Source of the DNA: Minisyncoccota bacterium
GTDB taxonomy: Bacteria; Patescibacteriota; Minisyncoccia; Phycocordibacterales; UBA5272
Assembly (NCBI GenBank): GCA_018062965.1
Contig: JAGORG010000005.1
Location: 604 to 64,603 of the forward strand
Reading direction: 5' to 3'
Length of the DNA: 64,000 nucleotides
Below are positions 4,522 to 44,971 of this stretch, one piece after another (position 1 is the first letter of the stretch; every line of letters begins with the position of its first letter). The translations under genes were made by a program, and so were the position numbers. The notes beneath the pieces were generated by a model that was given only the letters and a program-made list of their open reading frames with translations, ran no database searches and was not told the DNA's origin.

Positions 4522-4654
4522 TGCGAAACAGAATTTTCAGAAAATTGTTTTATATGTGAGGCGCGGGGGATGTTTCGACGGAGACGTAGATACTGCTACG
4601 TTGACCGAGAAACATGGGGCCCGCAACAAAGCAGATGAGACGATTTTCTGAAAA

Positions 4655-5908
4655 TTATTTCTTGCGGCGCAGGAATGGTGGAAGAGCCTCCCAGTCATCG
4701 TCTTCTTCCTCGTCATCGTCAAACTTAAATACAGGTTTCTTATTTGCTTTTCGGCGGTCCGCAGATTCAACTTCTTCCGTCGTTGCTGTTACGCTGTTAT
4801 CGATACGTTTGTCATCAGATTTGACCTCTTCTTTTGATTCTTCGATAGCTTCTTTGATAGTCTCACGCTTTTCAAGTCGTGGTTCAGGAAGTACTACTTC
4901 AGCATCTCGCTTCTCGCTTATAGATGACTGTGATGAATGTGAACGTCCAAATCCAGCAGGGAATCCAGTTGCGATAACAGTTACCTTCACCTCATCTTTC
5001 TTAAGTGTTGGATCAGATGCAATACCAAAGATAATCTTAGCGTCTTTATCAACAGATTCAGTGATAATCTTTGCTGCTTCTTGAACTTCAAGCATTCCTA
5101 GGTCTTCAGATCCATAAATTGCAAACAGTACACCTTTTGCTCCATGAATTGAAACATCAAGGAGAGGTGAGTTAACTGCAGCAGTTGCTGCTTCACGTGC
5201 ACGGTTTTCACCCATACCTCGCCCTACACCCATAAGCGCTGTTCCAGAATCCTTGAGAATCCGTTTGATATCTGCAAAGTCGAGGTTGATTGTTCCTGCT
5301 GTGCGGATAATATCTGAAATACCTTCTACGGCTTGCTTAAGAACCTCGTCACACATTTCAAACGCTTGCTTTACTGATGTATTTTTGTCGATAACAGAGA
5401 GGAGTCTGTCGTTTGGGATAACAATGAGAGCATCAACTTCTTTTTCAAGCTCTTCAAGTCCTCGTTCTGCGAGCTTCATGCGAGATGCACCTTCAAAGAA
5501 GAATGGCTTTGTTACTACACCAACCGTAAGGATGCCTTCGTTCTTTGCAATCGACGCAACTACCGGTGCTGCACCAGTTCCGGTTCCTCCACCCATACCA
5601 CCTGCGATGAATACCATGTCAGCGCCTTTGATGACATCTTGCACTTCTTCACGAGTTTCTTCCGCAGAACGTTTACCAATTTCTGGGTCCATGCCAGCCC
5701 CAAGACCTTTGGTGAGATTTTTTCCAATATGAATTTTCTTTTCTGCGAGTGAGTGATGAAGGTCTTGCGTGTCAGTGTTCATCGCGATGAACTCAACTCC
5801 TTGGAGTTTGGAGTTGATCATGTGATTGAGCGCGCCTTTTCCTGATCCACCGATACCGATGACTTTAATGCGGGCAAAACTTTCGATTTCTGGGTTTACT
5901 TTTGGCAT
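4655..5908 (-). CDS. ftsZ: Cell division protein FtsZ
   Basis: Tubulin signature GGGTGTGAAPVVA, and a C-terminal conserved peptide DDWEALPPFLRRKK after a low-complexity linker. Confidence 0.95.
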   Translation of the reverse strand: MPKVNPEIESFARIKVIGIGGSGKGALNHMINSKLQGVEFIAMNTDTQDLHHSLAEKKIHIGKNLTKGLGAGMDPEIGKRSAEETREEVQDVIKGADMVFIAGGMGGGTGTGAAPVVASIAKNEGILTVGVVTKPFFFEGASRMKLAERGLEELEKEVDALIVIPNDRLLSVIDKNTSVKQAFEMCDEVLKQAVEGISDIIRTAGTINLDFADIKRILKDSGTALMGVGRGMGENRAREAATAAVNSPLLDVSIHGAKGVLFAIYGSEDLGMLEVQEAAKIITESVDKDAKIIFGIASDPTLKKDEVKVTVIATGFPAGFGRSHSSQSSISEKRDAEVVLPEPRLEKRETIKEAIEESKEEVKSDDKRIDNSVTATTEEVESADRRKANKKPVFKFDDDEEEDDDWEALPPFLRRKK

Positions 5909-13223: not shown

Positions 13224-13592
13224 TTAGACAACGATTGGTGACGTTAGGGTTTTCATGCGGTAGTAGACGTATACCTTGTACCCCATCAGTTCGGTGGCAT
13301 GGTCGTGCAAAACAAACTGAACCCTATAGGTTTGGCTTTCCTTGGTGAGAAGGTTTGGAATCTTTCGTTCCAGTTCGTCCTTCTTAAGGAATGTCTTGAA
13401 GCCTTGTTTTATGGAGATACCTGTACCCGTTTTGATGCGGATGCCGTTGGTTGCGTTTTCGTTTGGCTCGCGAGTGCTAGAGCAGCGCGCGAACCAGCCA
13501 GCGACTTCCTCACCGTGAGCATGGAAGACCTCAAAGAGGATTCCATCCTCAACGAATGTACGCTCGAGGTTTCTGTAGTCATTCAGGTTCAT
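13224..13592 (-). CDS. Hypothetical protein (122 aa) in GC-rich island 1. The Shine-Dalgarno site GGAG lies upstream.
   Basis: The ORF starts 17 nt after the upstream ORF stop, its codon usage is GC-rich and unlike the host, and a terminator follows. I found no recognisable motif (HAHGEE is the only notable patch). Confidence 0.5.
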   Translation of the reverse strand: MNLNDYRNLERTFVEDGILFEVFHAHGEEVAGWFARCSSTREPNENATNGIRIKTGTGISIKQGFKTFLKKDELERKIPNLLTKESQTYRVQFVLHDHATELMGYKVYVYYRMKTLTSPIVV

Positions 13593-13609
13593 GTCCTTGC
13601 TCCTTGTTG

Positions 13610-14011
13610 TTAAACCGGAACGCTAACCGTGACCCGGACCGGAACCTTAATCGAGCAGTAGACCTGCTCGGTGAGGATCCCTGTTTCCAGCTCTCCAGGG
13701 TTATGGAAGGCGCGAATCTCAAAGATGCCTTCTTCTCCGCCGGTTGCAGCGGTGATTTTCTCACTAGGAATCTCAAGGGTGAGAATCTCGACGCTGGGAT
13801 CCTTATCGGATATTCCGACAACCGAGTGAGCTGGAGGTGACTGCCAGTTCTTGGGTTTCCCATTCGCGCCGACGAAGGCAAGAATAATGGGCAGCCCAGG
13901 GACCAGTTGCATGAGGGTACCAATGCGAGTCGTCTTGGTTTTAACGTTAACCACGGAAACGGTTGCTCCGTGAAGTTTTTGAGCAATTTGAAATGTCTTT
14001 GCGGTAGCCAT
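13610..14011 (-). CDS. Hypothetical protein (133 aa) in GC-rich island 1
   Basis: A canonical Shine-Dalgarno site (ttgaaAGGAGtgcatcATG) and GC-rich codons. I found no recognisable motif. Confidence 0.5.
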   Translation of the reverse strand: MATAKTFQIAQKLHGATVSVVNVKTKTTRIGTLMQLVPGLPIILAFVGANGKPKNWQSPPAHSVVGISDKDPSVEILTLEIPSEKITAATGGEEGIFEIRAFHNPGELETGILTEQVYCSIKVPVRVTVSVPV

Positions 14012-14202
14012 GATGCACTCCTTTCAATGGTGTGCGTGAACTATATTTCTAAGTAAGTATGGCAACCCCCTTAGAAACAACCCTGAGCAGTGCCAGAAAA
14101 AAAACTTTTTCTAAGCGCCGTCAGTAGCGTATATAATATAACATATTAATAAGTAAATGTCAATGTTCTCTTATTTTTCAGTTCAAGATATTTAGGATAT
14201 TA

Positions 14203-14232
14203 AAATAAAAAGCCCGCATCTTTCGATGCGGG
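14203..14232 (-). terminator. Rho-independent terminator after the 60-aa gene
   Basis: On the minus strand: CCCGCATC-gaaa-GATGCGGG followed by CTTTTTATTTT. Confidence 0.7.
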
Positions 14233-14249
14233 AGATGTGATGGGGTTGG

Positions 14250-14432
14250 TCAGCCTTTGCGGCCGGTACCCATCTTGATGGTGCGGGCCGAGCAAACAAA
14301 ATTACTCGGAGTGTTTGTGCGGGGGATTCCCACACTCAGCGGCTTCAGTCCGGGTCTGGCAGATGCCGGGGGCGGGCTGTAGTCCCGCATTTCGACTTCG
14401 CCATTGGCTTTCTTGAAAGTGACCTTGCACAT
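14250..14432 (-). CDS. Small protein (60 aa) of unknown function, apparently set up for high expression
   Basis: MCKVTFKKANGEVEMRDYSPPPASARPGLKPLSVGIPRTNTPSNFVCSARTIKMGTGRKG. The Shine-Dalgarno site GAGGAG sits 7 nt before the ATG at 14432. A consensus promoter (TTGACA-16-TATACT) lies upstream and a clean terminator lies downstream. Confidence 0.5.
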   Translation of the reverse strand: MCKVTFKKANGEVEMRDYSPPPASARPGLKPLSVGIPRTNTPSNFVCSARTIKMGTGRKG

Positions 14433-14494
14433 GTCTTTGCTCCTCAAAGTGTGCTTTTTCTATGCAGCTGACCACCAGCTACATTTCTCTCTAC

Positions 14495-24794: not shown

Positions 24795-24865
24795 GGGCCT
24801 ATAGTTTAGTGGTAGAACAACGGCCTCCAAATCCGTTGGTCGAGGTTCGATTCCTCGTGGGCCCG
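24795..24865 (+). tRNA. trnW: tRNA-Trp (anticodon CCA)
   Basis: GGGCCTATAGTTTAGTGGTAGAACAACGGCCTCCAAATCCGTTGGTCGAGGTTCGATTCCTCGTGGGCCCG folds as a 7-bp acceptor stem (one G-U pair), a D arm GTTT/GAAC, an anticodon loop CUCCAAA, a T arm CGAGG-TTCGATT-CCTCG and discriminator G. No 3' CCA is encoded. There is one mismatch at positions 31-39. Confidence 0.8.
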
Positions 24866-33211: not shown

Positions 33212-34354
33212 ATGTCACACGATTACAACAAAGAATCAATTGAACTACATAAGAAACACAACGGAAAGATAGAGCTTTCAGTTAAAGTACCGATGAATGA
33301 CCGGGACGATCTCTCTCGTGCATACACTCCAGGTATTGCAGAAATTTCTCGCGAGATCGCTCGTGATCCATCGCTTGCTCGTGACTATACATTGAAACGA
33401 AATACGGTTGCAATCGTGTCTGACGGCTCTGCAATTTTAGGGCTTGGAAATCTTGGAGCACTCGCTGCAATTCCGGTTATGGAAGGAAAGGCTGCGATAC
33501 TCAAATCATTTGCTAATGTGGATGCATTTCCTATTTGTTTGGATACGCAAGATACAGAAGAAATCATTCAAGCAGTTAAACACATAGCTCCAGTGTTTGG
33601 TGCCATTAACTTAGAGGACATCGCAGCTCCTAAATGTTTTGAGATTGAAGAACGTTTGCGTGCAGAGTTATCTATTCCTGTGATGCATGATGACCAGTGG
33701 GGGACAGCAACAGTTGTCCTCGGGGGGCTTATCAATGCGCTTACAGTTACTGGTCGCGGAGAAGGAAAAGAATCGGTTATCGTAATAAACGGTGTTGGTT
33801 CAGCCGGTGTTGCAACATCTCGACTTCTTCTTGCGTACGGTTTTAAGCATATTATTTTCTGTGACAGTCAGGGGATTATTCATGAAGGGCGTGCAGATCT
33901 TACAAAAGAAAAGAAAGAATTGCTCGAAGCAAGTGATCTTCATCCAGAACCAGGAACACTAACGGACGCTGTTGTTGGGGCTGATGTGTTTGTGGGTGTT
34001 TCAAAAGCTGGAGTACTCACTCCTGAAATGGTACAAGCCATGAACAAAGATTCGATTGTGTTTGCGCTTGCAAATCCAGTTCCAGAAATTATGCCAGATC
34101 TTGCTCGTGATGCAGGTATTGCGGTTATTGCAACAGGACGAAGTGACTTTCCAAACCAACTCAATAACTCGCTCATCTTCCCAGGACTCTTTAAAGGGGT
34201 TCTTGACGCTCATATTAAGCAGTTTGAAATTTCAATGTTTACGAAAGCTGCACTTGCGCTCGCAGGGCATGTTAAAAATCCAACAAGAGACGAAATACTT
34301 CCAACGATGTTTGATAAAGAGCTCGTTGATGTTATCGCTGCTACAGTAAAATAA
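33212..34354 (+). CDS. NAD(P)-dependent malic enzyme (short form)
   Basis: DLSRAYTPGIAEISREIARDP...VINGVGSAGVATSRLL (Rossmann), and ALANPVPEI, matching the malic enzyme family. Confidence 0.85.
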   Translation: MSHDYNKESIELHKKHNGKIELSVKVPMNDRDDLSRAYTPGIAEISREIARDPSLARDYTLKRNTVAIVSDGSAILGLGNLGALAAIPVMEGKAAILKSFANVDAFPICLDTQDTEEIIQAVKHIAPVFGAINLEDIAAPKCFEIEERLRAELSIPVMHDDQWGTATVVLGGLINALTVTGRGEGKESVIVINGVGSAGVATSRLLLAYGFKHIIFCDSQGIIHEGRADLTKEKKELLEASDLHPEPGTLTDAVVGADVFVGVSKAGVLTPEMVQAMNKDSIVFALANPVPEIMPDLARDAGIAVIATGRSDFPNQLNNSLIFPGLFKGVLDAHIKQFEISMFTKAALALAGHVKNPTRDEILPTMFDKELVDVIAATVK

Positions 34355-34358
34355 AAAT

Positions 34359-34383
34359 AAGGGAGTCCTTGAGGGACTCCCTT
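34359..34383. terminator. Bidirectional terminator hairpin AAGGGAGTCC-ttga-GGGACTCCCTT
   Basis: It is flanked by an A-run on the + strand and, on the minus strand, is followed by TTATTTTTATTTT. It sits after the lipoprotein gene. Confidence 0.65.
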
Positions 34384-34401
34384 AGTGGGGAAAGCCGAGT
34401 A

Positions 34402-35175
34402 TTAGCTTGTGAGCTTCATCAGCTGTTTTTGGCTCCAGCGGGCGAACTTGTCGCCGCCGTTCATGTGACGACGATGCAGGAACTGCGTCATCCAGGCGGC
34501 ATTGCTGTCGAGCCGGCCTTCACTGTATGTGACGCCGAACTTCTCTGCTTCCTTGTGGCAATCTTCCGGCGCGGTCGTGGTTTGTGAGCAGCTGAGAAGG
34601 ACTTCGAACGACTTTTCGCTGTAGGGCGTCGCGAGGATCTTGTGCAGCTTGCGCAGCTCTTGAATCAGGTCTGCTTTTGTGCGCAGGGCAGGTACCATGC
34701 TGTCGATGATCTTTTCGGCGACAGCTGGATGCTGTTGCATCCACACCAAGATACCGGAAGCGAGGCGCAGTCGCTGCTCGTTTTCATTGCTTGTGTAGTC
34801 CTGTGTGCCAGCATCTTTTTTCATGATGTTGTACCAGGTGCGGCCGGCGACTGCGCCGAGGTATTGGGCGCTGTAGATGGCTTCGGCAATTTCCTGGGCA
34901 TCAGTTGGCAGTGCTCCAGCTTTCATGTCGGAGATTTTCTGCAGCCGGGTCGTGACACCTGCTTCCATGGCTTTGTCAGCCGCGAGCTCCTTCTCTTTGG
35001 CAGTTTTTTCAGCTGCAATCCTGTCTTTCTCAGCCTTCTCGGCTGCAGTTTTGGCGTCCCGTTCGGCTTGGGTTGGCCCTTTGACGACAGGCGCTGGCGC
35101 AGGAGGAGGTTCATTCTTGTTGCAGCCGGTCAAAGCTGTCAGACAAATCAGAATCGAAATCAATGTGCTTTTCAT
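34402..35175 (-). CDS. Lipoprotein of unknown function, in GC-rich island 2
   Basis: A signal peptide with the lipobox LTALTGC, an Ala/Lys/Glu-rich linker, and about 58 % GC with CTG/GCC/CGC/GGC codon preference unlike the host. The Shine-Dalgarno site AAGGAG lies 8 nt before the ATG. Confidence 0.6.
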   Translation of the reverse strand: MKSTLISILICLTALTGCNKNEPPPAPAPVVKGPTQAERDAKTAAEKAEKDRIAAEKTAKEKELAADKAMEAGVTTRLQKISDMKAGALPTDAQEIAEAIYSAQYLGAVAGRTWYNIMKKDAGTQDYTSNENEQRLRLASGILVWMQQHPAVAEKIIDSMVPALRTKADLIQELRKLHKILATPYSEKSFEVLLSCSQTTTAPEDCHKEAEKFGVTYSEGRLDSNAAWMTQFLHRRHMNGGDKFARWSQKQLMKLTS

Positions 35176-35248
35176 GGTGTTTTCTCCTTGTAGAGTTGCT
35201 GCCCACCAAGGCAGGGGATTATATCCCTTGGGTTGAAATACAATATAT

Positions 35249-35276
35249 ATTATAACATTTTATAACTTTTAGTCAA
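35249..35276 (-). promoter_or_regulatory. Consensus promoter TTGACT-16-TATAAT for the lipoprotein gene
   Basis: On the + strand the sequence reads ATTATA (35249-35254) ... AGTCAA (35271-35276), which is TTGACT-16-TATAAT on the minus strand. Confidence 0.55.
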
Positions 35277-35282
35277 GTTTTA

Positions 35283-35316
35283 TTTTTTAATAAAATGACC
35301 TCACGAGGAGGTCATT
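35283..35316 (-). terminator. Terminator hairpin AATGACCTC-ctcgt-GAGGTCATT plus a U/A tract, overlapping the stop codon of the upstream small gene
   Basis: Inverted repeat at 35294-35316, with the minus strand followed by TTATTAAAAAAT. Confidence 0.5.
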
Positions 35317-35545
35317 GTCGAGTTTTTTGTTTTGTTTTTGGTTTACCCCTTGTTGGCCAGCGGTCTAGGGTAAACTTCGTCTGTTCTGATTCAGGGGTAA
35401 ACCCCTTACGTGGTAGGTTTCTTTTTAGTTTGTCGTGAAAGCAACGAAGTGCATCTTTACTGAATGTTTGTTTTTTTCCATCCACTACGAAACAGGCGAC
35501 GAAACCCTGTCCATGCCCTTGAAAGCCTTTGAAGATAAGTGGCAC
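35312..35545 (-). CDS. Small basic protein (77 aa) with a GTG start, in island 2. Alternatively it is the 3' part of a frameshifted gene.
   Basis: The Shine-Dalgarno site tagaAGGAGtgcacaGTG lies 6 nt upstream and is nearly identical to the island 1 site AGGAGtgcatcATG. The stop codon is embedded in the terminator hairpin. It overlaps the upstream ORF by 89 nt in another frame. Confidence 0.35.
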   Translation of the reverse strand: MPLIFKGFQGHGQGFVACFVVDGKKQTFSKDALRCFHDKLKRNLPRKGFTPESEQTKFTLDRWPTRGKPKTKQKTRQ

Positions 35546-35711
35546 TGTGCACTCCTTCTATATGAATGTAATCAAGTGGATCCTTTCTCAATATGAAGCA
35601 TGTACCACAAAAGATAAGTATGGTAAGACATGCAACAATGAGCGCCGGGCCTGCAATGCAAGCAAAGAATGCCCAACGAACGACAGTTGGCAACGAAAAG
35701 CCTTTTCTCAT
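35457..35711 (-). CDS. Small membrane protein (84 aa) in island 2
   Basis: MRKGFSLPTVVRWAFFACIAGPALIVACLTILIFCGTCFILRKD..., with the Shine-Dalgarno site GGAGG 8 nt before the ATG at 35711. Confidence 0.4.
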   Translation of the reverse strand: MRKGFSLPTVVRWAFFACIAGPALIVACLTILIFCGTCFILRKDPLDYIHIEGVHSATYLQRLSRAWTGFRRLFRSGWKKTNIQ

Positions 35712-35817
35712 AGAACTATCCTCCATAAAATGTCTTCTCGTATCCTACGTGGTTTGAACGAAAAAGTCTACATTCTTAGTATTTTAAGCTGTGCCCTTGA
35801 TATGGTAGTATCAAGTC

Positions 35818-37059
35818 ATGTCATTTTCTTTTGAAATACAGAAGCGCTCAGATGAAGCGCCTCTTGCTCGTGCAGGGGTTATCCATACACCACACGGAGA
35901 TATCAAAACACCAGCCTTTATAACGGTAGGAACAAAAGCAACCGTGAAAGCACTTACACCTGAGCAGGTTCGTGACTATGTTGGCGCGCAAGCTGTTCTT
36001 GCAAATACGTATCACCTATACCTTCAGCCAGGGGACGAGGTTGTGGTCGAGCATGGTGGGTTTCCAAAGATGATGGGGTGGCACGGCCCGTCATTTACTG
36101 ATTCTGGAGGGTTCCAGGTGTTTTCGCTTGGGCAAGCTCTTGGACACGGCGTGAGCAAGATAGCAACATCAGAAGAAATATCACAAGCAGAAGTAGAGCA
36201 AAGTAAACGCGACACAGACGAAGAATCTCGTGGCAAAGTTCATGAAAAAATGGCAACTATAGATGACGACGGGGTGACGTTTAAATCTGTTATTGACGGC
36301 AGTGAGCATCGGTTTACTCCAGAAAAGAGTATGCAGATACAACACAACCTCGGTGCAGATATATTCTTTGCATTTGATGAATGCACAAGCCCACTTGCAC
36401 CTATCCCGTACCAACGAGAGGCAATGAATAGAACTCATACCTGGGCAAAGCGATGTATCGACGAACATAAACGTCTCGGGGTATCTGCTGCAACAGGGGA
36501 AATGCAGGCACTATTCGGTGTTGTGCAAGGTGGTGCGTATGAAGAGCTGCGCCGTGAGTCGGCGCGTATATTGGGCGCTATGGACTTTGACGGATTTGGT
36601 ATCGGGGGTAGTTTTACAAAAGAAGATATGGGAACTGCAGTGAGATGGGTATGTGAAGAACTACCAGAGGGAAAACCTCGACACTTGCTTGGTATTGGGG
36701 AACCTCTTGATATCTTACTCGCTATTGAAAACGGTATAGATACGTTTGATTGTGTTGCGCCTACTCGTATAGGGAGAAATGGAGCATTGTATACACTTGA
36801 TGGTCGTATCAATATCACTAATGCAAAATACGCACATGATATGTCTCCTATTTCAGATGACGAATCATGGTACACGCATCAGTTTACAAAAAGTTATTTG
36901 TCACATTTGTTTAAAGCAGACGAAATGCTTGCCGGAACACTCGCATCAATTCATAACCTAAAGTTTTTAACCAAGCTTGTTGATGATGCACGAGAAGCAA
37001 TTTTAGATGGTACGTTTAACGAGTTTAAGGAGACTTTTATCAAAAGGTATTACAAATAA
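35818..37059 (+). CDS. tgt: Queuine tRNA-ribosyltransferase
   Basis: HTPHGDIKTPAFITVGTKATVKALTPEQ, ANTYHLYLQPG, and a Zn site CVAPTRIGRNG...H match the TGT family. It has an insertion compared with E. coli. Confidence 0.9.
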   Translation: MSFSFEIQKRSDEAPLARAGVIHTPHGDIKTPAFITVGTKATVKALTPEQVRDYVGAQAVLANTYHLYLQPGDEVVVEHGGFPKMMGWHGPSFTDSGGFQVFSLGQALGHGVSKIATSEEISQAEVEQSKRDTDEESRGKVHEKMATIDDDGVTFKSVIDGSEHRFTPEKSMQIQHNLGADIFFAFDECTSPLAPIPYQREAMNRTHTWAKRCIDEHKRLGVSAATGEMQALFGVVQGGAYEELRRESARILGAMDFDGFGIGGSFTKEDMGTAVRWVCEELPEGKPRHLLGIGEPLDILLAIENGIDTFDCVAPTRIGRNGALYTLDGRINITNAKYAHDMSPISDDESWYTHQFTKSYLSHLFKADEMLAGTLASIHNLKFLTKLVDDAREAILDGTFNEFKETFIKRYYK

Positions 37060-37149: not shown

Positions 37150-37371
37150 TTAACTGAAGATGATGATCGCCAGAATGACGGCGACCATAATGACGATGTC
37201 TTGAATGCCATTAGGCTCTTTAGATTGACTCTTCTTTTTGCTGCTGTTGTTTGCGAACAACATTTCCCAGATAAAGATGAACCACACGAATGAATCCTTC
37301 AGGTTTGTCTTGTTTTTTACTTCGACCTCGTCACCGAATACGTTACGAGGTTTATACTGCTTTGTTGCCAT
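37150..37371 (-). CDS. Small hypothetical protein with a C-terminal TM helix (73 aa)
   Basis: ORF only (MATKQYKPRNVFGDEVEVKNK...IVIMVAVILAIIIFS). Confidence 0.25.
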   Translation of the reverse strand: MATKQYKPRNVFGDEVEVKNKTNLKDSFVWFIFIWEMLFANNSSKKKSQSKEPNGIQDIVIMVAVILAIIIFS

Positions 37372-44554: not shown

Positions 44555-44971
44555 CTACATATGGCCAAGCTCTTGCAGGGCCAGCTGGAGAGATTTGCGC
44601 TCAACCGATAGCAGTTTTACGGCAGGTTTGCCCAGCATATTGTTGCCTGTAAGCCTCAGTGTTACCCACTGGGCTCTGCCGTTTTTTACGGCTTCAAGCA
44701 GGAGAGGTACAGAGACTTCATGCCCAATGTCCATCATCACGTTTTTGAACTTGCAAAAGCCGGGCTTATGCAGGCGGATAACTGTGACACGGAACTGAAG
44801 TTGCTCGATCTTTGCCGAGATTTCTGACCTCTGCGGTAAAGGTGCGATGGTGACGTTATGTTGTCCTGGCCTCCTCATAAGGCCAATCATTTTTTTCTGT
44901 CCCCAGGCCCTAACCATTTCGGTAGGAGATAAGGCTTGGGGCTTTTCTAATACTTCGCTTTCTTGGCTCAT
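44555..44971 (-). CDS. Hypothetical protein (138 aa), forming GC-rich island 3
   Basis: About 52-55 % GC, the Shine-Dalgarno site GAGG 6 nt before the ATG, and its own terminator. I recognised no motif (MSQESEVLEKPQALSPTEMVRAWGQKKMIGLMRRPGQHNVTIAPLPQRSEI...). Confidence 0.45.
   Translation of the reverse strand: MSQESEVLEKPQALSPTEMVRAWGQKKMIGLMRRPGQHNVTIAPLPQRSEISAKIEQLQFRVTVIRLHKPGFCKFKNVMMDIGHEVSVPLLLEAVKNGRAQWVTLRLTGNNMLGKPAVKLLSVERKSLQLALQELGHM

Follow-up and report, generated by a model that had tools for sequence, protein, structure and literature searches.

The window analysed here is a stretch of 64,000 nucleotides (contig JAGORG010000005.1 of assembly GCA_018062965.1) with a GC content of 42.3%, whose proteins are identical to GenBank entries of a 'Candidatus Pacebacteria bacterium' metagenome-assembled genome (MAG). 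The closest GTDB genomes by Tgt (identity up to 85%) are Paceibacteria/Nomurabacteria-type MAGs of the candidate phyla radiation (CPR). We describe a gene for a 257-aa lipoprotein (KBC50_03060) that lies, together with a pair of small genes, between the genes encoding a malic enzyme (33212–34354, plus strand) and Tgt (KBC50_03070; 35818–37059, plus strand), with UvrB encoded beyond the latter. We refer to the interval between the two conserved genes as the tgt–malic slot, and to the segment that carries the lipoprotein gene as the lipoprotein cassette. The parts of the cassette are as follows.

34359..35291, minus strand: lipoprotein cassette, a 933-bp presence/absence segment made up of terminator, coding sequence (CDS), leader and promoter
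34358..34384, both strands possible: hairpin terminator of the lipoprotein gene, an 11-bp stem with 6 G-C pairs and then a T-run
34402..35175, minus strand: open reading frame (ORF) of the 257-aa lipoprotein, GenBank MBP9782681.1, 'hypothetical protein'
35176..35238, minus strand: 5′ leader with helices P1 and P2, a loop–start pairing and a Shine-Dalgarno (SD) site, recognised by conservation and covariation
35249..35276, minus strand: sigma-70-type promoter TTGACT-16-(TG)TATAAT, 11 of 12 consensus positions, with a TG-extended -10

The lipoprotein cassette and its family

The 257-aa reading frame with its lipobox (LTALTG/C), the AAGGAG site 8 nt before the ATG, the TTGACT-16-TATAAT promoter and the hairpin terminator are all present as a sequence-only reading of this DNA had claimed, and the terminator (34384..34358) sits back to back with the malic-enzyme stop codon. 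Both promoter hexamers are kept in L001, L002, L003, L105, L110 and L116 (L numbers are related loci, and P numbers their lipoproteins), and an equivalent terminator hairpin, with compensating changes, is found in L002, L003 and L105.

The cassette is present or absent as a whole. In contigs L098–L104, which were reached through homologs of the 77-aa small protein, Tgt is 96–97% identical (95–97% for Tgt and malic enzyme together) and the small-gene pair is present, but the lipoprotein gene is absent. Homology of the window to these contigs by blastn ends at 34358 and restarts at 35292, and the two flanks are 3 nt apart in L102; the 933 bp therefore constitute a single presence/absence unit. 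When filled and empty sites are aligned, the empty-site sequence reads ...ACAGTACAATAAAAATGACCTCGCGAGGAGGTCATT; there the hairpin in which the 77-aa gene terminates comes immediately after the stop codon for the malic enzyme. The filled layout recurs in L001, an independent assembly with DNA about 91% identical to that of the window, and the same junctions there rule out a chimera. Presence and absence among close relatives with defined junctions is behaviour expected of a genomic island. The mobility functions of such an island were not seen, there being no integrase, transposase or other mobility gene within the 933 bp; the only repeat is AATAAAA, which occurs at both ends of the insert, is of low complexity, is also part of the terminator T-run and is not diagnostic.

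The lipoprotein begins with MK-STLISILICLTA-LTG/C18, the signal peptide (basic n-region, hydrophobic h-region) and lipobox of a bacterial lipoprotein. A Pro/Ala spacer then leads into a helix of 47 residues, and the helical head beyond it has the conserved residues Cys196 and Cys206 and an RR..GG..F..Q motif (family alignment A6). Relatives are few, with four among 5.8 billion proteins and 21 matches in a profile search of 1.84 billion cluster representatives; they are 249–314 aa long, except for the weakest match, which is a 174-aa fragment, and are found solely on Paceibacteria-type contigs, usually in the tgt–malic slot. The lipobox is in all 22 aligned members with its Cys invariant, and the invariant residues of the family are Cys18, Pro162, Cys196, Cys206, Phe232, Arg235, Arg236, Phe244 and Gln249. 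A scan of the GTDB species genomes with the lipoprotein gave no copy, and collections of viruses, phages and plasmids contained no relative. The ratio of non-synonymous to synonymous divergence (dN/dS) is 0.18–0.33 (0.18 against L001), compared with 0.03–0.07 in the flanks, which shows that the gene is functional but under weaker constraint than the flanks. Lipidation and outward surface exposure of the product are predicted.

An AlphaFold model (AF2, from the 22-sequence alignment) is all helical with a pLDDT of 87 and a pTM of 0.73, and has a disordered spacer, the 47-residue helix and the helical head; an earlier AF2 run on five sequences (pLDDT 54) was too poor for use. Foldseek comparison of the pLDDT-87 model with the PDB and BFVD returned nothing below E = 0.3, with TM-scores of at most 0.30, a profile search of PDB sequences was empty, and the family has no Pfam match. 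Searches of Pfam, NCBIfam, PHROGs and PADLOC with all three products of the locus gave only sub-threshold matches to signal peptides or to Ala/Glu/Lys-rich helices. One such candidate is the Rz1/LysC o-spanin (NF038368), which scores 15.8 bits against a cut-off of 27 and aligns only with residues 8–34, i.e. the signal peptide and lipobox. The JGI name for P0001, SRP GTPase, has no supporting domain.

The lipoprotein CDS is 55.0% GC, somewhat below the 58% or so estimated in the sequence-only reading, and its GC content at third codon positions (GC3) of 0.64 compares with about 0.33 in its immediate neighbours and a mean of 0.37 in the window (z = 3.1), the top value among credible window genes. 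The codon usage is unlike that of the host, as had been claimed, with GCC, GGC, GTC, AGC, CTG, TTC and TAC preferred in contrast to the 46 long host ORFs. This island-like composition is a property of the lipoprotein gene only; the earlier inclusion of the small genes in the GC-rich island is incorrect, since the GC-rich part extends only from 34359 to 35291 and the small genes are host-like and present without the lipoprotein. The compositional step is sharp at the CDS borders. GC3 does not go up in the 3′ quarter of the malic-enzyme gene, where recombination occurs, and a simple gene-conversion gradient is therefore disfavoured; the remaining long ORFs, which include housekeeping genes, likewise show no rise, and this speaks against ordinary codon adaptation. 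Spill-over of gene conversion into the malic-enzyme gene was considered and rejected, as GC3 is not raised there. Homologs in the same arrangement do occur in related genomes, but not at the GC content of their hosts, and in seven of eight backgrounds GC3 is higher in the lipoprotein gene than in its neighbours, by +0.12 to +0.31. The GC3 values (lipoprotein/neighbours) are as follows.

Window: 0.64/0.33
L002: 0.86/0.55
L105: 0.84/0.72
L109: 0.60/0.42
L110: 0.60/0.39
L113: 0.59/0.37
L116: 0.64/0.34
L117: 0.32/0.42 (the exception)

Allele exchange in the tgt–malic slot

Seven other alleles have an informative contig, and six of them are in the tgt–malic slot. Copies beside the malic-enzyme gene are found in L002, L003, L108, L110, L113 and L116 (P0003, P0004 and P0024–P0027), and in these the lipoprotein is 30–49% identical to the window allele and the malic enzyme 78–83%. 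P0023 (L105) and the distant P0034 (L109) are outside the slot; behind P0023 come first a terminator and next an apparent tRNA gene (L105 7610–7690), a different integration context. Elsewhere among the relatives the slot is empty, has the small-gene pair alone, or contains an HD-domain gene. The HD-domain gene (LHDxxED motif, roughly 210–260 aa) occupies the slot in many relatives (e.g. L005–L007, L009–L011 and L023), and is on the same strand as the lipoprotein gene; sometimes both are present together (L110 4934–5692).

Comparisons between individual loci show that the lipoprotein gene and its flanks have different histories. One example is the pair L002 and L003, in which the synonymous divergence (dS) is 0.18 for the lipoprotein gene compared with 2.3 for tgt and 2.0 for the malic-enzyme gene. 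Nucleotide identity between the two is 0.91–0.97 over about 1.1 kb and 0.72–0.82 in the flanks, and the tract of high identity takes in the first ~80 nt of tgt at one end and the last ~40 nt of the malic-enzyme gene at the other. A second example is the converse, in L111 and L114, which are 99–100% identical across tgt, the HD gene, the promoter and the leader, whereas the CDSs are 45–65% identical and the proteins only 39% identical, and the last ~600 bp of the malic-enzyme gene is mosaic (80–95%). In a third comparison, that of the window and L001, dS is 0.70 for the malic-enzyme gene, 0.14 for tgt and 0.18 for the lipoprotein gene, which points to a mosaic history, with the malic-enzyme gene in the window lineage having a past that differs from those of tgt and the lipoprotein gene. 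The discordance with the flanks, both in dS and in swaps within flanks that are 99–100% identical, is as expected of a genomic island, and the divergent alleles in near-identical backgrounds with breakpoints in the flanks (L111/L114 and L002/L003) are as expected of a polymorphic locus. The indel, the same allele in diverged genomes and different alleles in the same background together argue for homologous recombination, and these sequence comparisons make allele exchange by this route at the tgt–malic slot a well supported interpretation.

The 5′ leader and the resident small genes

The transcript upstream of the lipoprotein start codon contains two predicted hairpins and a possible pairing between the loop of the second and the start-codon region, with the following elements, all on the minus strand.

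35227–35223 with 35219–35215, minus strand: leader P1 hairpin
35214–35210 with 35203–35199, minus strand: leader P2 hairpin
35208–35204, minus strand: P2 loop UGGUG, pairing with its complement CACCA at 35179–35175, which includes the A of AUG
35189–35184, minus strand: leader SD site AAGGAG

A 21-nt block (TCCCCTGCCTTGGTGGGCAG C) is identical in the window, L001, L002 and L003. The window-type and L002-type proteins are 48% identical with a dS of 1.45, and the promoter hexamers and the region from the SD to the ATG are nonetheless still conserved. The leader element is also present ahead of P0023, P0025, P0026 and P0027. P1 appears as GGGAU/AUCCC, GGGAU/GUCCC, GGGAC/GUCCC or GAGC/GCUC, and P2 as CUGCC/GGCAG, with CUGCU/AGCAG in L116 and one pair deleted in L105. 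The loop is complementary to the 4–5 nt ending at the A of AUG, as UGGUG:CACCA or, in the L110, L113 and L116 types, as UGAUG:CAUCA. In the hand-registered leader alignment the proposed pairs form in 97% of cells, and both partners have changed in 5 of the 15 pairs; slid controls pair in 38–59% of cells, and the covariation score of 0.283 (0.128 when shuffled) was reached by none of 500 shuffles. From an automatic alignment, in which MAFFT had misregistered P1 and so hidden it, RNAalifold retrieved P2 alone. A covariance model (R1) matches only lipoprotein leaders in 907 kb of related DNA. The minimum-energy folds contain P1 and P2 in the window, L110 and L116, and a start-masking helix in L002 and L105; this choice of fold fits a two-state translational control element, in which P2 or its loop would compete for, or pair with, the start-codon region. 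We note that gene callers begin P0025 and P0027 at an ATG inside P2 (L110 6001 and L116 472), adding about 10 spurious residues, and that P0026 (L113 950) is called too late, removing its signal peptide.

No Rfam family matches the leader, and neither preQ1 nor any other known riboswitch was matched in Rfam beside tgt. In having a short leader, a loop or strand that pairs with the ribosome-binding region, and covariation, it resembles pseudoknot leaders that mask the start codon or SD, such as the expression platforms of the preQ1-II and SAM-II riboswitches, but differs in that the start codon rather than the SD is paired and that it is found only ahead of one lipoprotein subfamily. There is also some resemblance to the freshwater-2 RNA (RF02980), which has successive small hairpins and then AAGGAGAAAACA..AUG; however, the match is weak (17.5 bits against a gathering threshold of 49.9), is carried by the SD region and is missing from the L110 leader. 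An exact leader 19-mer is present in 14 metagenome contigs, all in unrelated coding contexts.

On the tgt side of the cassette are two small overlapping genes and a hairpin, as follows.

35293..35317, no strand assigned: hairpin AATGACCTC-CTCGT-GAGGTCATT containing the stop codon of the 77-aa gene, from the sequence and the filled/empty alignment
35312..35545, minus strand: gene for a 77-aa basic protein with a GTG start and SD GGAGTG; resident, unannotated in GenBank and with no NCBI nr accession
35457..35711, minus strand: gene for an 84-aa small membrane protein with GGAGG and an ATG start, identical to GenBank MBP9782682.1 (KBC50_03065)

Both reading frames are as the sequence-only reading described them, with the last 89 nt of the 84-aa gene overlapping the 77-aa gene in a different frame. 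At 43% GC and a GC3 of 0.35–0.37 the two are host-like. Homologs of the 77-aa protein are 90% (L001), 69–74% (L098–L104) and 44% (L004) identical, and those of the 84-aa protein 89% in L001 and 65–66% in L098–L104, with the overlap kept. The 77-aa gene has a dN/dS of 0.21 relative to L098, and neither product has a family match in Pfam, NCBIfam, PHROGs or PADLOC. The 77-aa gene was probably left unannotated because it overlaps the annotated 84-aa gene. Its stop codon had been placed within a terminator hairpin; the TGA is indeed within a hairpin, which in the cassette-free relatives sits between two convergent genes, but the terminator scan did not return it, probably because its T-run is short.

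An alternative raised earlier is that the pair is a single gene broken by a frameshift (real or from sequencing) or joined by programmed frameshifting. An overlap of 89 nt is unusually long for bacterial genes, and the 77-aa frame is missing from the GenBank annotation, both of which would speak for this. However, each frame has its own SD and start codon, and the two-ORF layout, with an overlap of 86–89 nt, is found in the independent assemblies L001, L098 and L101 and is not unique to that of the window; altogether the overlap is kept in four other lineages. Comparison with L001 shows seven synonymous and three non-synonymous changes and a 6-nt in-frame indel in the part unique to the 77-aa gene, and three of each and a 9-nt in-frame indel in the part unique to the 84-aa gene, such that both frames remain intact. 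In L004 the small membrane ORF ahead of a 72-aa homolog (44%) is a different one; the two overlap by 49 nt with their frames offset the opposite way, and there is thus no conserved shift site. A frameshifted single gene therefore seems very improbable. Within the overlap, substitutions replace residues encoded in the 84-aa frame (Gly by Trp in one case), and the tail of that product is probably unconstrained read-through. The pattern of substitutions and indels argues that these are two real resident genes, an older pair unrelated to the cassette.

Interpretation and other GC-rich orphans

We consider it probable that the window contains a swappable lipoprotein cassette in a recombination-prone slot, and that its product acts as a variable surface determinant. 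The segment 34359–35291 is an autonomous cassette consisting of a strong promoter, a structured leader, the lipoprotein CDS and a terminator. Its product would be a membrane-anchored lipoprotein that faces outwards, with a compact helical head held on a long single helix and a flexible Pro/Ala spacer. Alleles would be gained, lost and replaced in the slot via homologous recombination, with one crossover within or close to the conserved promoter–leader region, or else where tgt begins, and the other in the 3′ part of the malic-enzyme gene. Such crossovers in the flanks would uncouple the history and base composition of the gene from those of the host chromosome. The product may contact a host cell, a phage or a neighbour, and divergent alleles would be kept in the population, with the leader presumably controlling translation. 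A more specific form of this reading, in which the lipoprotein is a strain-specific recognition protein of orphan fold, with ancient alleles held under frequency-dependent selection and shuffled from species to species by transformation and recombination, and the leader represents a new class of start-masking, riboswitch-like element, appears improbable as a whole; attachment of an episymbiont to its host or evasion of phages would be examples of such selection.

Several observations sit less comfortably with a swappable surface determinant. The 933-bp difference could be a gain as well as a loss, and the low-complexity AATAAAA is no guide. The relatives are metagenome assemblies, and few loci lie behind each of the recombination signatures. 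One family member, L117, is neither GC-rich nor preceded by the leader, and the GC3 excess in nearly every host, even in L105 with 59% GC, is not fully explained by import. A dN/dS below 1 gives no sign of overall positive selection, and no structural relative in the PDB or BFVD ties the lipoprotein to a role in recognition or at the surface. Seven distinct sequences from about four lineages make up the leader alignment, which was fitted manually to the proposed structure, and the single-sequence folding z-scores are modest (-0.75 to -1.56).

The sequence-only reading amounts to a classical island, in which a distant GC-rich donor supplied the lipoprotein gene, and perhaps the small genes too, in a single import that is now slowly ameliorating. 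The contrast in GC3, the GC-rich-type codons, the exact indel relative to close relatives and the gene's own promoter and terminator all agree with this, and the broader claim that the lipoprotein gene is a compositionally foreign, self-contained unit that moves horizontally is supported by the 933-bp indel and by a history discordant with the flanks. A single distant import is too simple, however, as all relatives found are on Paceibacteria-type contigs and mostly in the tgt–malic slot, the family has no phage, plasmid or viral-contig relative and shows the GC3 excess recurrently in hosts with GC3 from 0.33 to 0.72, and the small genes are host-like and predate the cassette; we therefore view such an origin as unlikely. 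A modest chance is given to a native, vertically inherited and fast-evolving gene, with GC3 raised by selection on the CDS (for expression or mRNA stability) or by a hot spot of GC-biased gene conversion, a process described in bacteria (PMC4450053). The conservation of the slot across family-level relatives, a GC3 offset that follows the GC3 of the host, the recombination demonstrated at the locus, and a near-consensus promoter and strong SD that suggest high expression are all in keeping with this. However, vertical descent cannot yield a dS of 0.18 beside flanks with a dS of 2, nor 39%-identical alleles within flanks that are 99–100% identical, and the preferred codons differ from those of host genes, GC3 is not raised in the other long ORFs, and the 3′ quarter of the malic-enzyme gene has no conversion gradient. 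Import from a GC-richer pool of alleles inside the clade fits the composition best. Finally, the sharp compositional step at the CDS borders might suggest a binning or assembly artefact, with a GC-rich fragment from another organism joined to the contig, but the same junctions are found in separate samples and assemblers (L001 and the contigs carrying P0001, P0008 and P0009), and in L111 and L114 the host flanks run without a break into the promoter and leader, so that the probability of this is negligible.

The swappable cassette can be compared with two known types of system. The OspC-type loci of Borrelia encode lipid-anchored, largely helical proteins at a single-copy fixed locus, with divergent alleles in near-identical genomes and recombining flanks. 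The lipoprotein locus is alike in its anchor, helices, fixed position, allele divergence and recombination, a likeness of arrangement; there is no similarity in sequence or fold and no PDB match. It also differs in being in a CPR bacterium, in adding presence/absence polymorphism and a GC3 excess, and in that its surface exposure is predicted. Phage morons have their own promoter and terminator and a deviant composition and are inserted between conserved genes, and they often encode envelope proteins. The cassette likewise is an autonomous promoter–gene–terminator unit of deviant GC content between two conserved genes, but the flanking tgt, malic-enzyme and uvrB genes are housekeeping genes rather than those of a phage or prophage, and no phage or viral relative was found.

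CPR bacteria, or Patescibacteria, are thought to live attached to other cells, and to our knowledge almost nothing is known of the surface molecules that set the specificity for their partners or of how their tiny genomes vary. A single bounded locus with strain-level allele replacement, sharing across species and presence/absence polymorphism is thus a candidate determinant of partner specificity, and the tgt–malic locus could be used as a recombination marker in uncultured lineages. It also provides an uncharacterised protein family with a confident model but no known structural neighbour, and a small candidate regulatory RNA. For annotation, we note that GC-rich 'islands' in MAGs of this type can be real recombining cassettes rather than binning errors, and that the GenBank record lacks a conserved gene, the one for the 77-aa protein.

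The sequence-only reading also took a nearly identical SD context as a hint that this GC-rich island shares an origin with another, island 1 (13224–14447, minus strand). The match itself is real, with the 9-mer AGGAGTGCA at 35548–35556 and at 14014–22, and three occurrences compared with 0.44 expected, a count reached in three of 100 shuffles. However, the 9-mer is largely an SD core and is thus weak evidence, and at the lipoprotein locus it belongs to the resident 77-aa gene, so that a shared origin is unsupported; the 77-aa protein and the 133-aa island-1 protein have no homology. Island 1 contains GC3-rich ORFs at 14250–14447 (60–65 aa), 13610–14011 (133 aa) and 13224–13592 (122 aa), with sigma-70-like promoters ahead of them and a hairpin terminator behind both the first ORF and the last. 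These have no match in Pfam, PHROGs or PADLOC and look like more autonomous cassettes in the style of the lipoprotein unit. A third GC-rich orphan cassette is the 138-aa ORF at 44555–44971 (minus strand, GC3 0.55), which has a GC-rich hairpin terminator and is between uvrA and uvrC on the opposite strand. All of the GC3-rich orphans (13224–14447, 34402–35175 and 44555–44971) are on the minus strand, opposite to their immediate neighbours, and the rising cumulative GC skew likewise favours the other strand.

The single tRNA of the window is at 24795. L001 has an extra 156-aa Clp_N-domain gene (4592–5062, corresponding to about 33190 in the window) between the malic-enzyme gene and a 296-aa gene. 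A 73-aa small membrane ORF is present between tgt and uvrB (37150–37371, minus strand); its product is 67% identical in L001, and a 77-aa ORF is called at this position in L098–L104.

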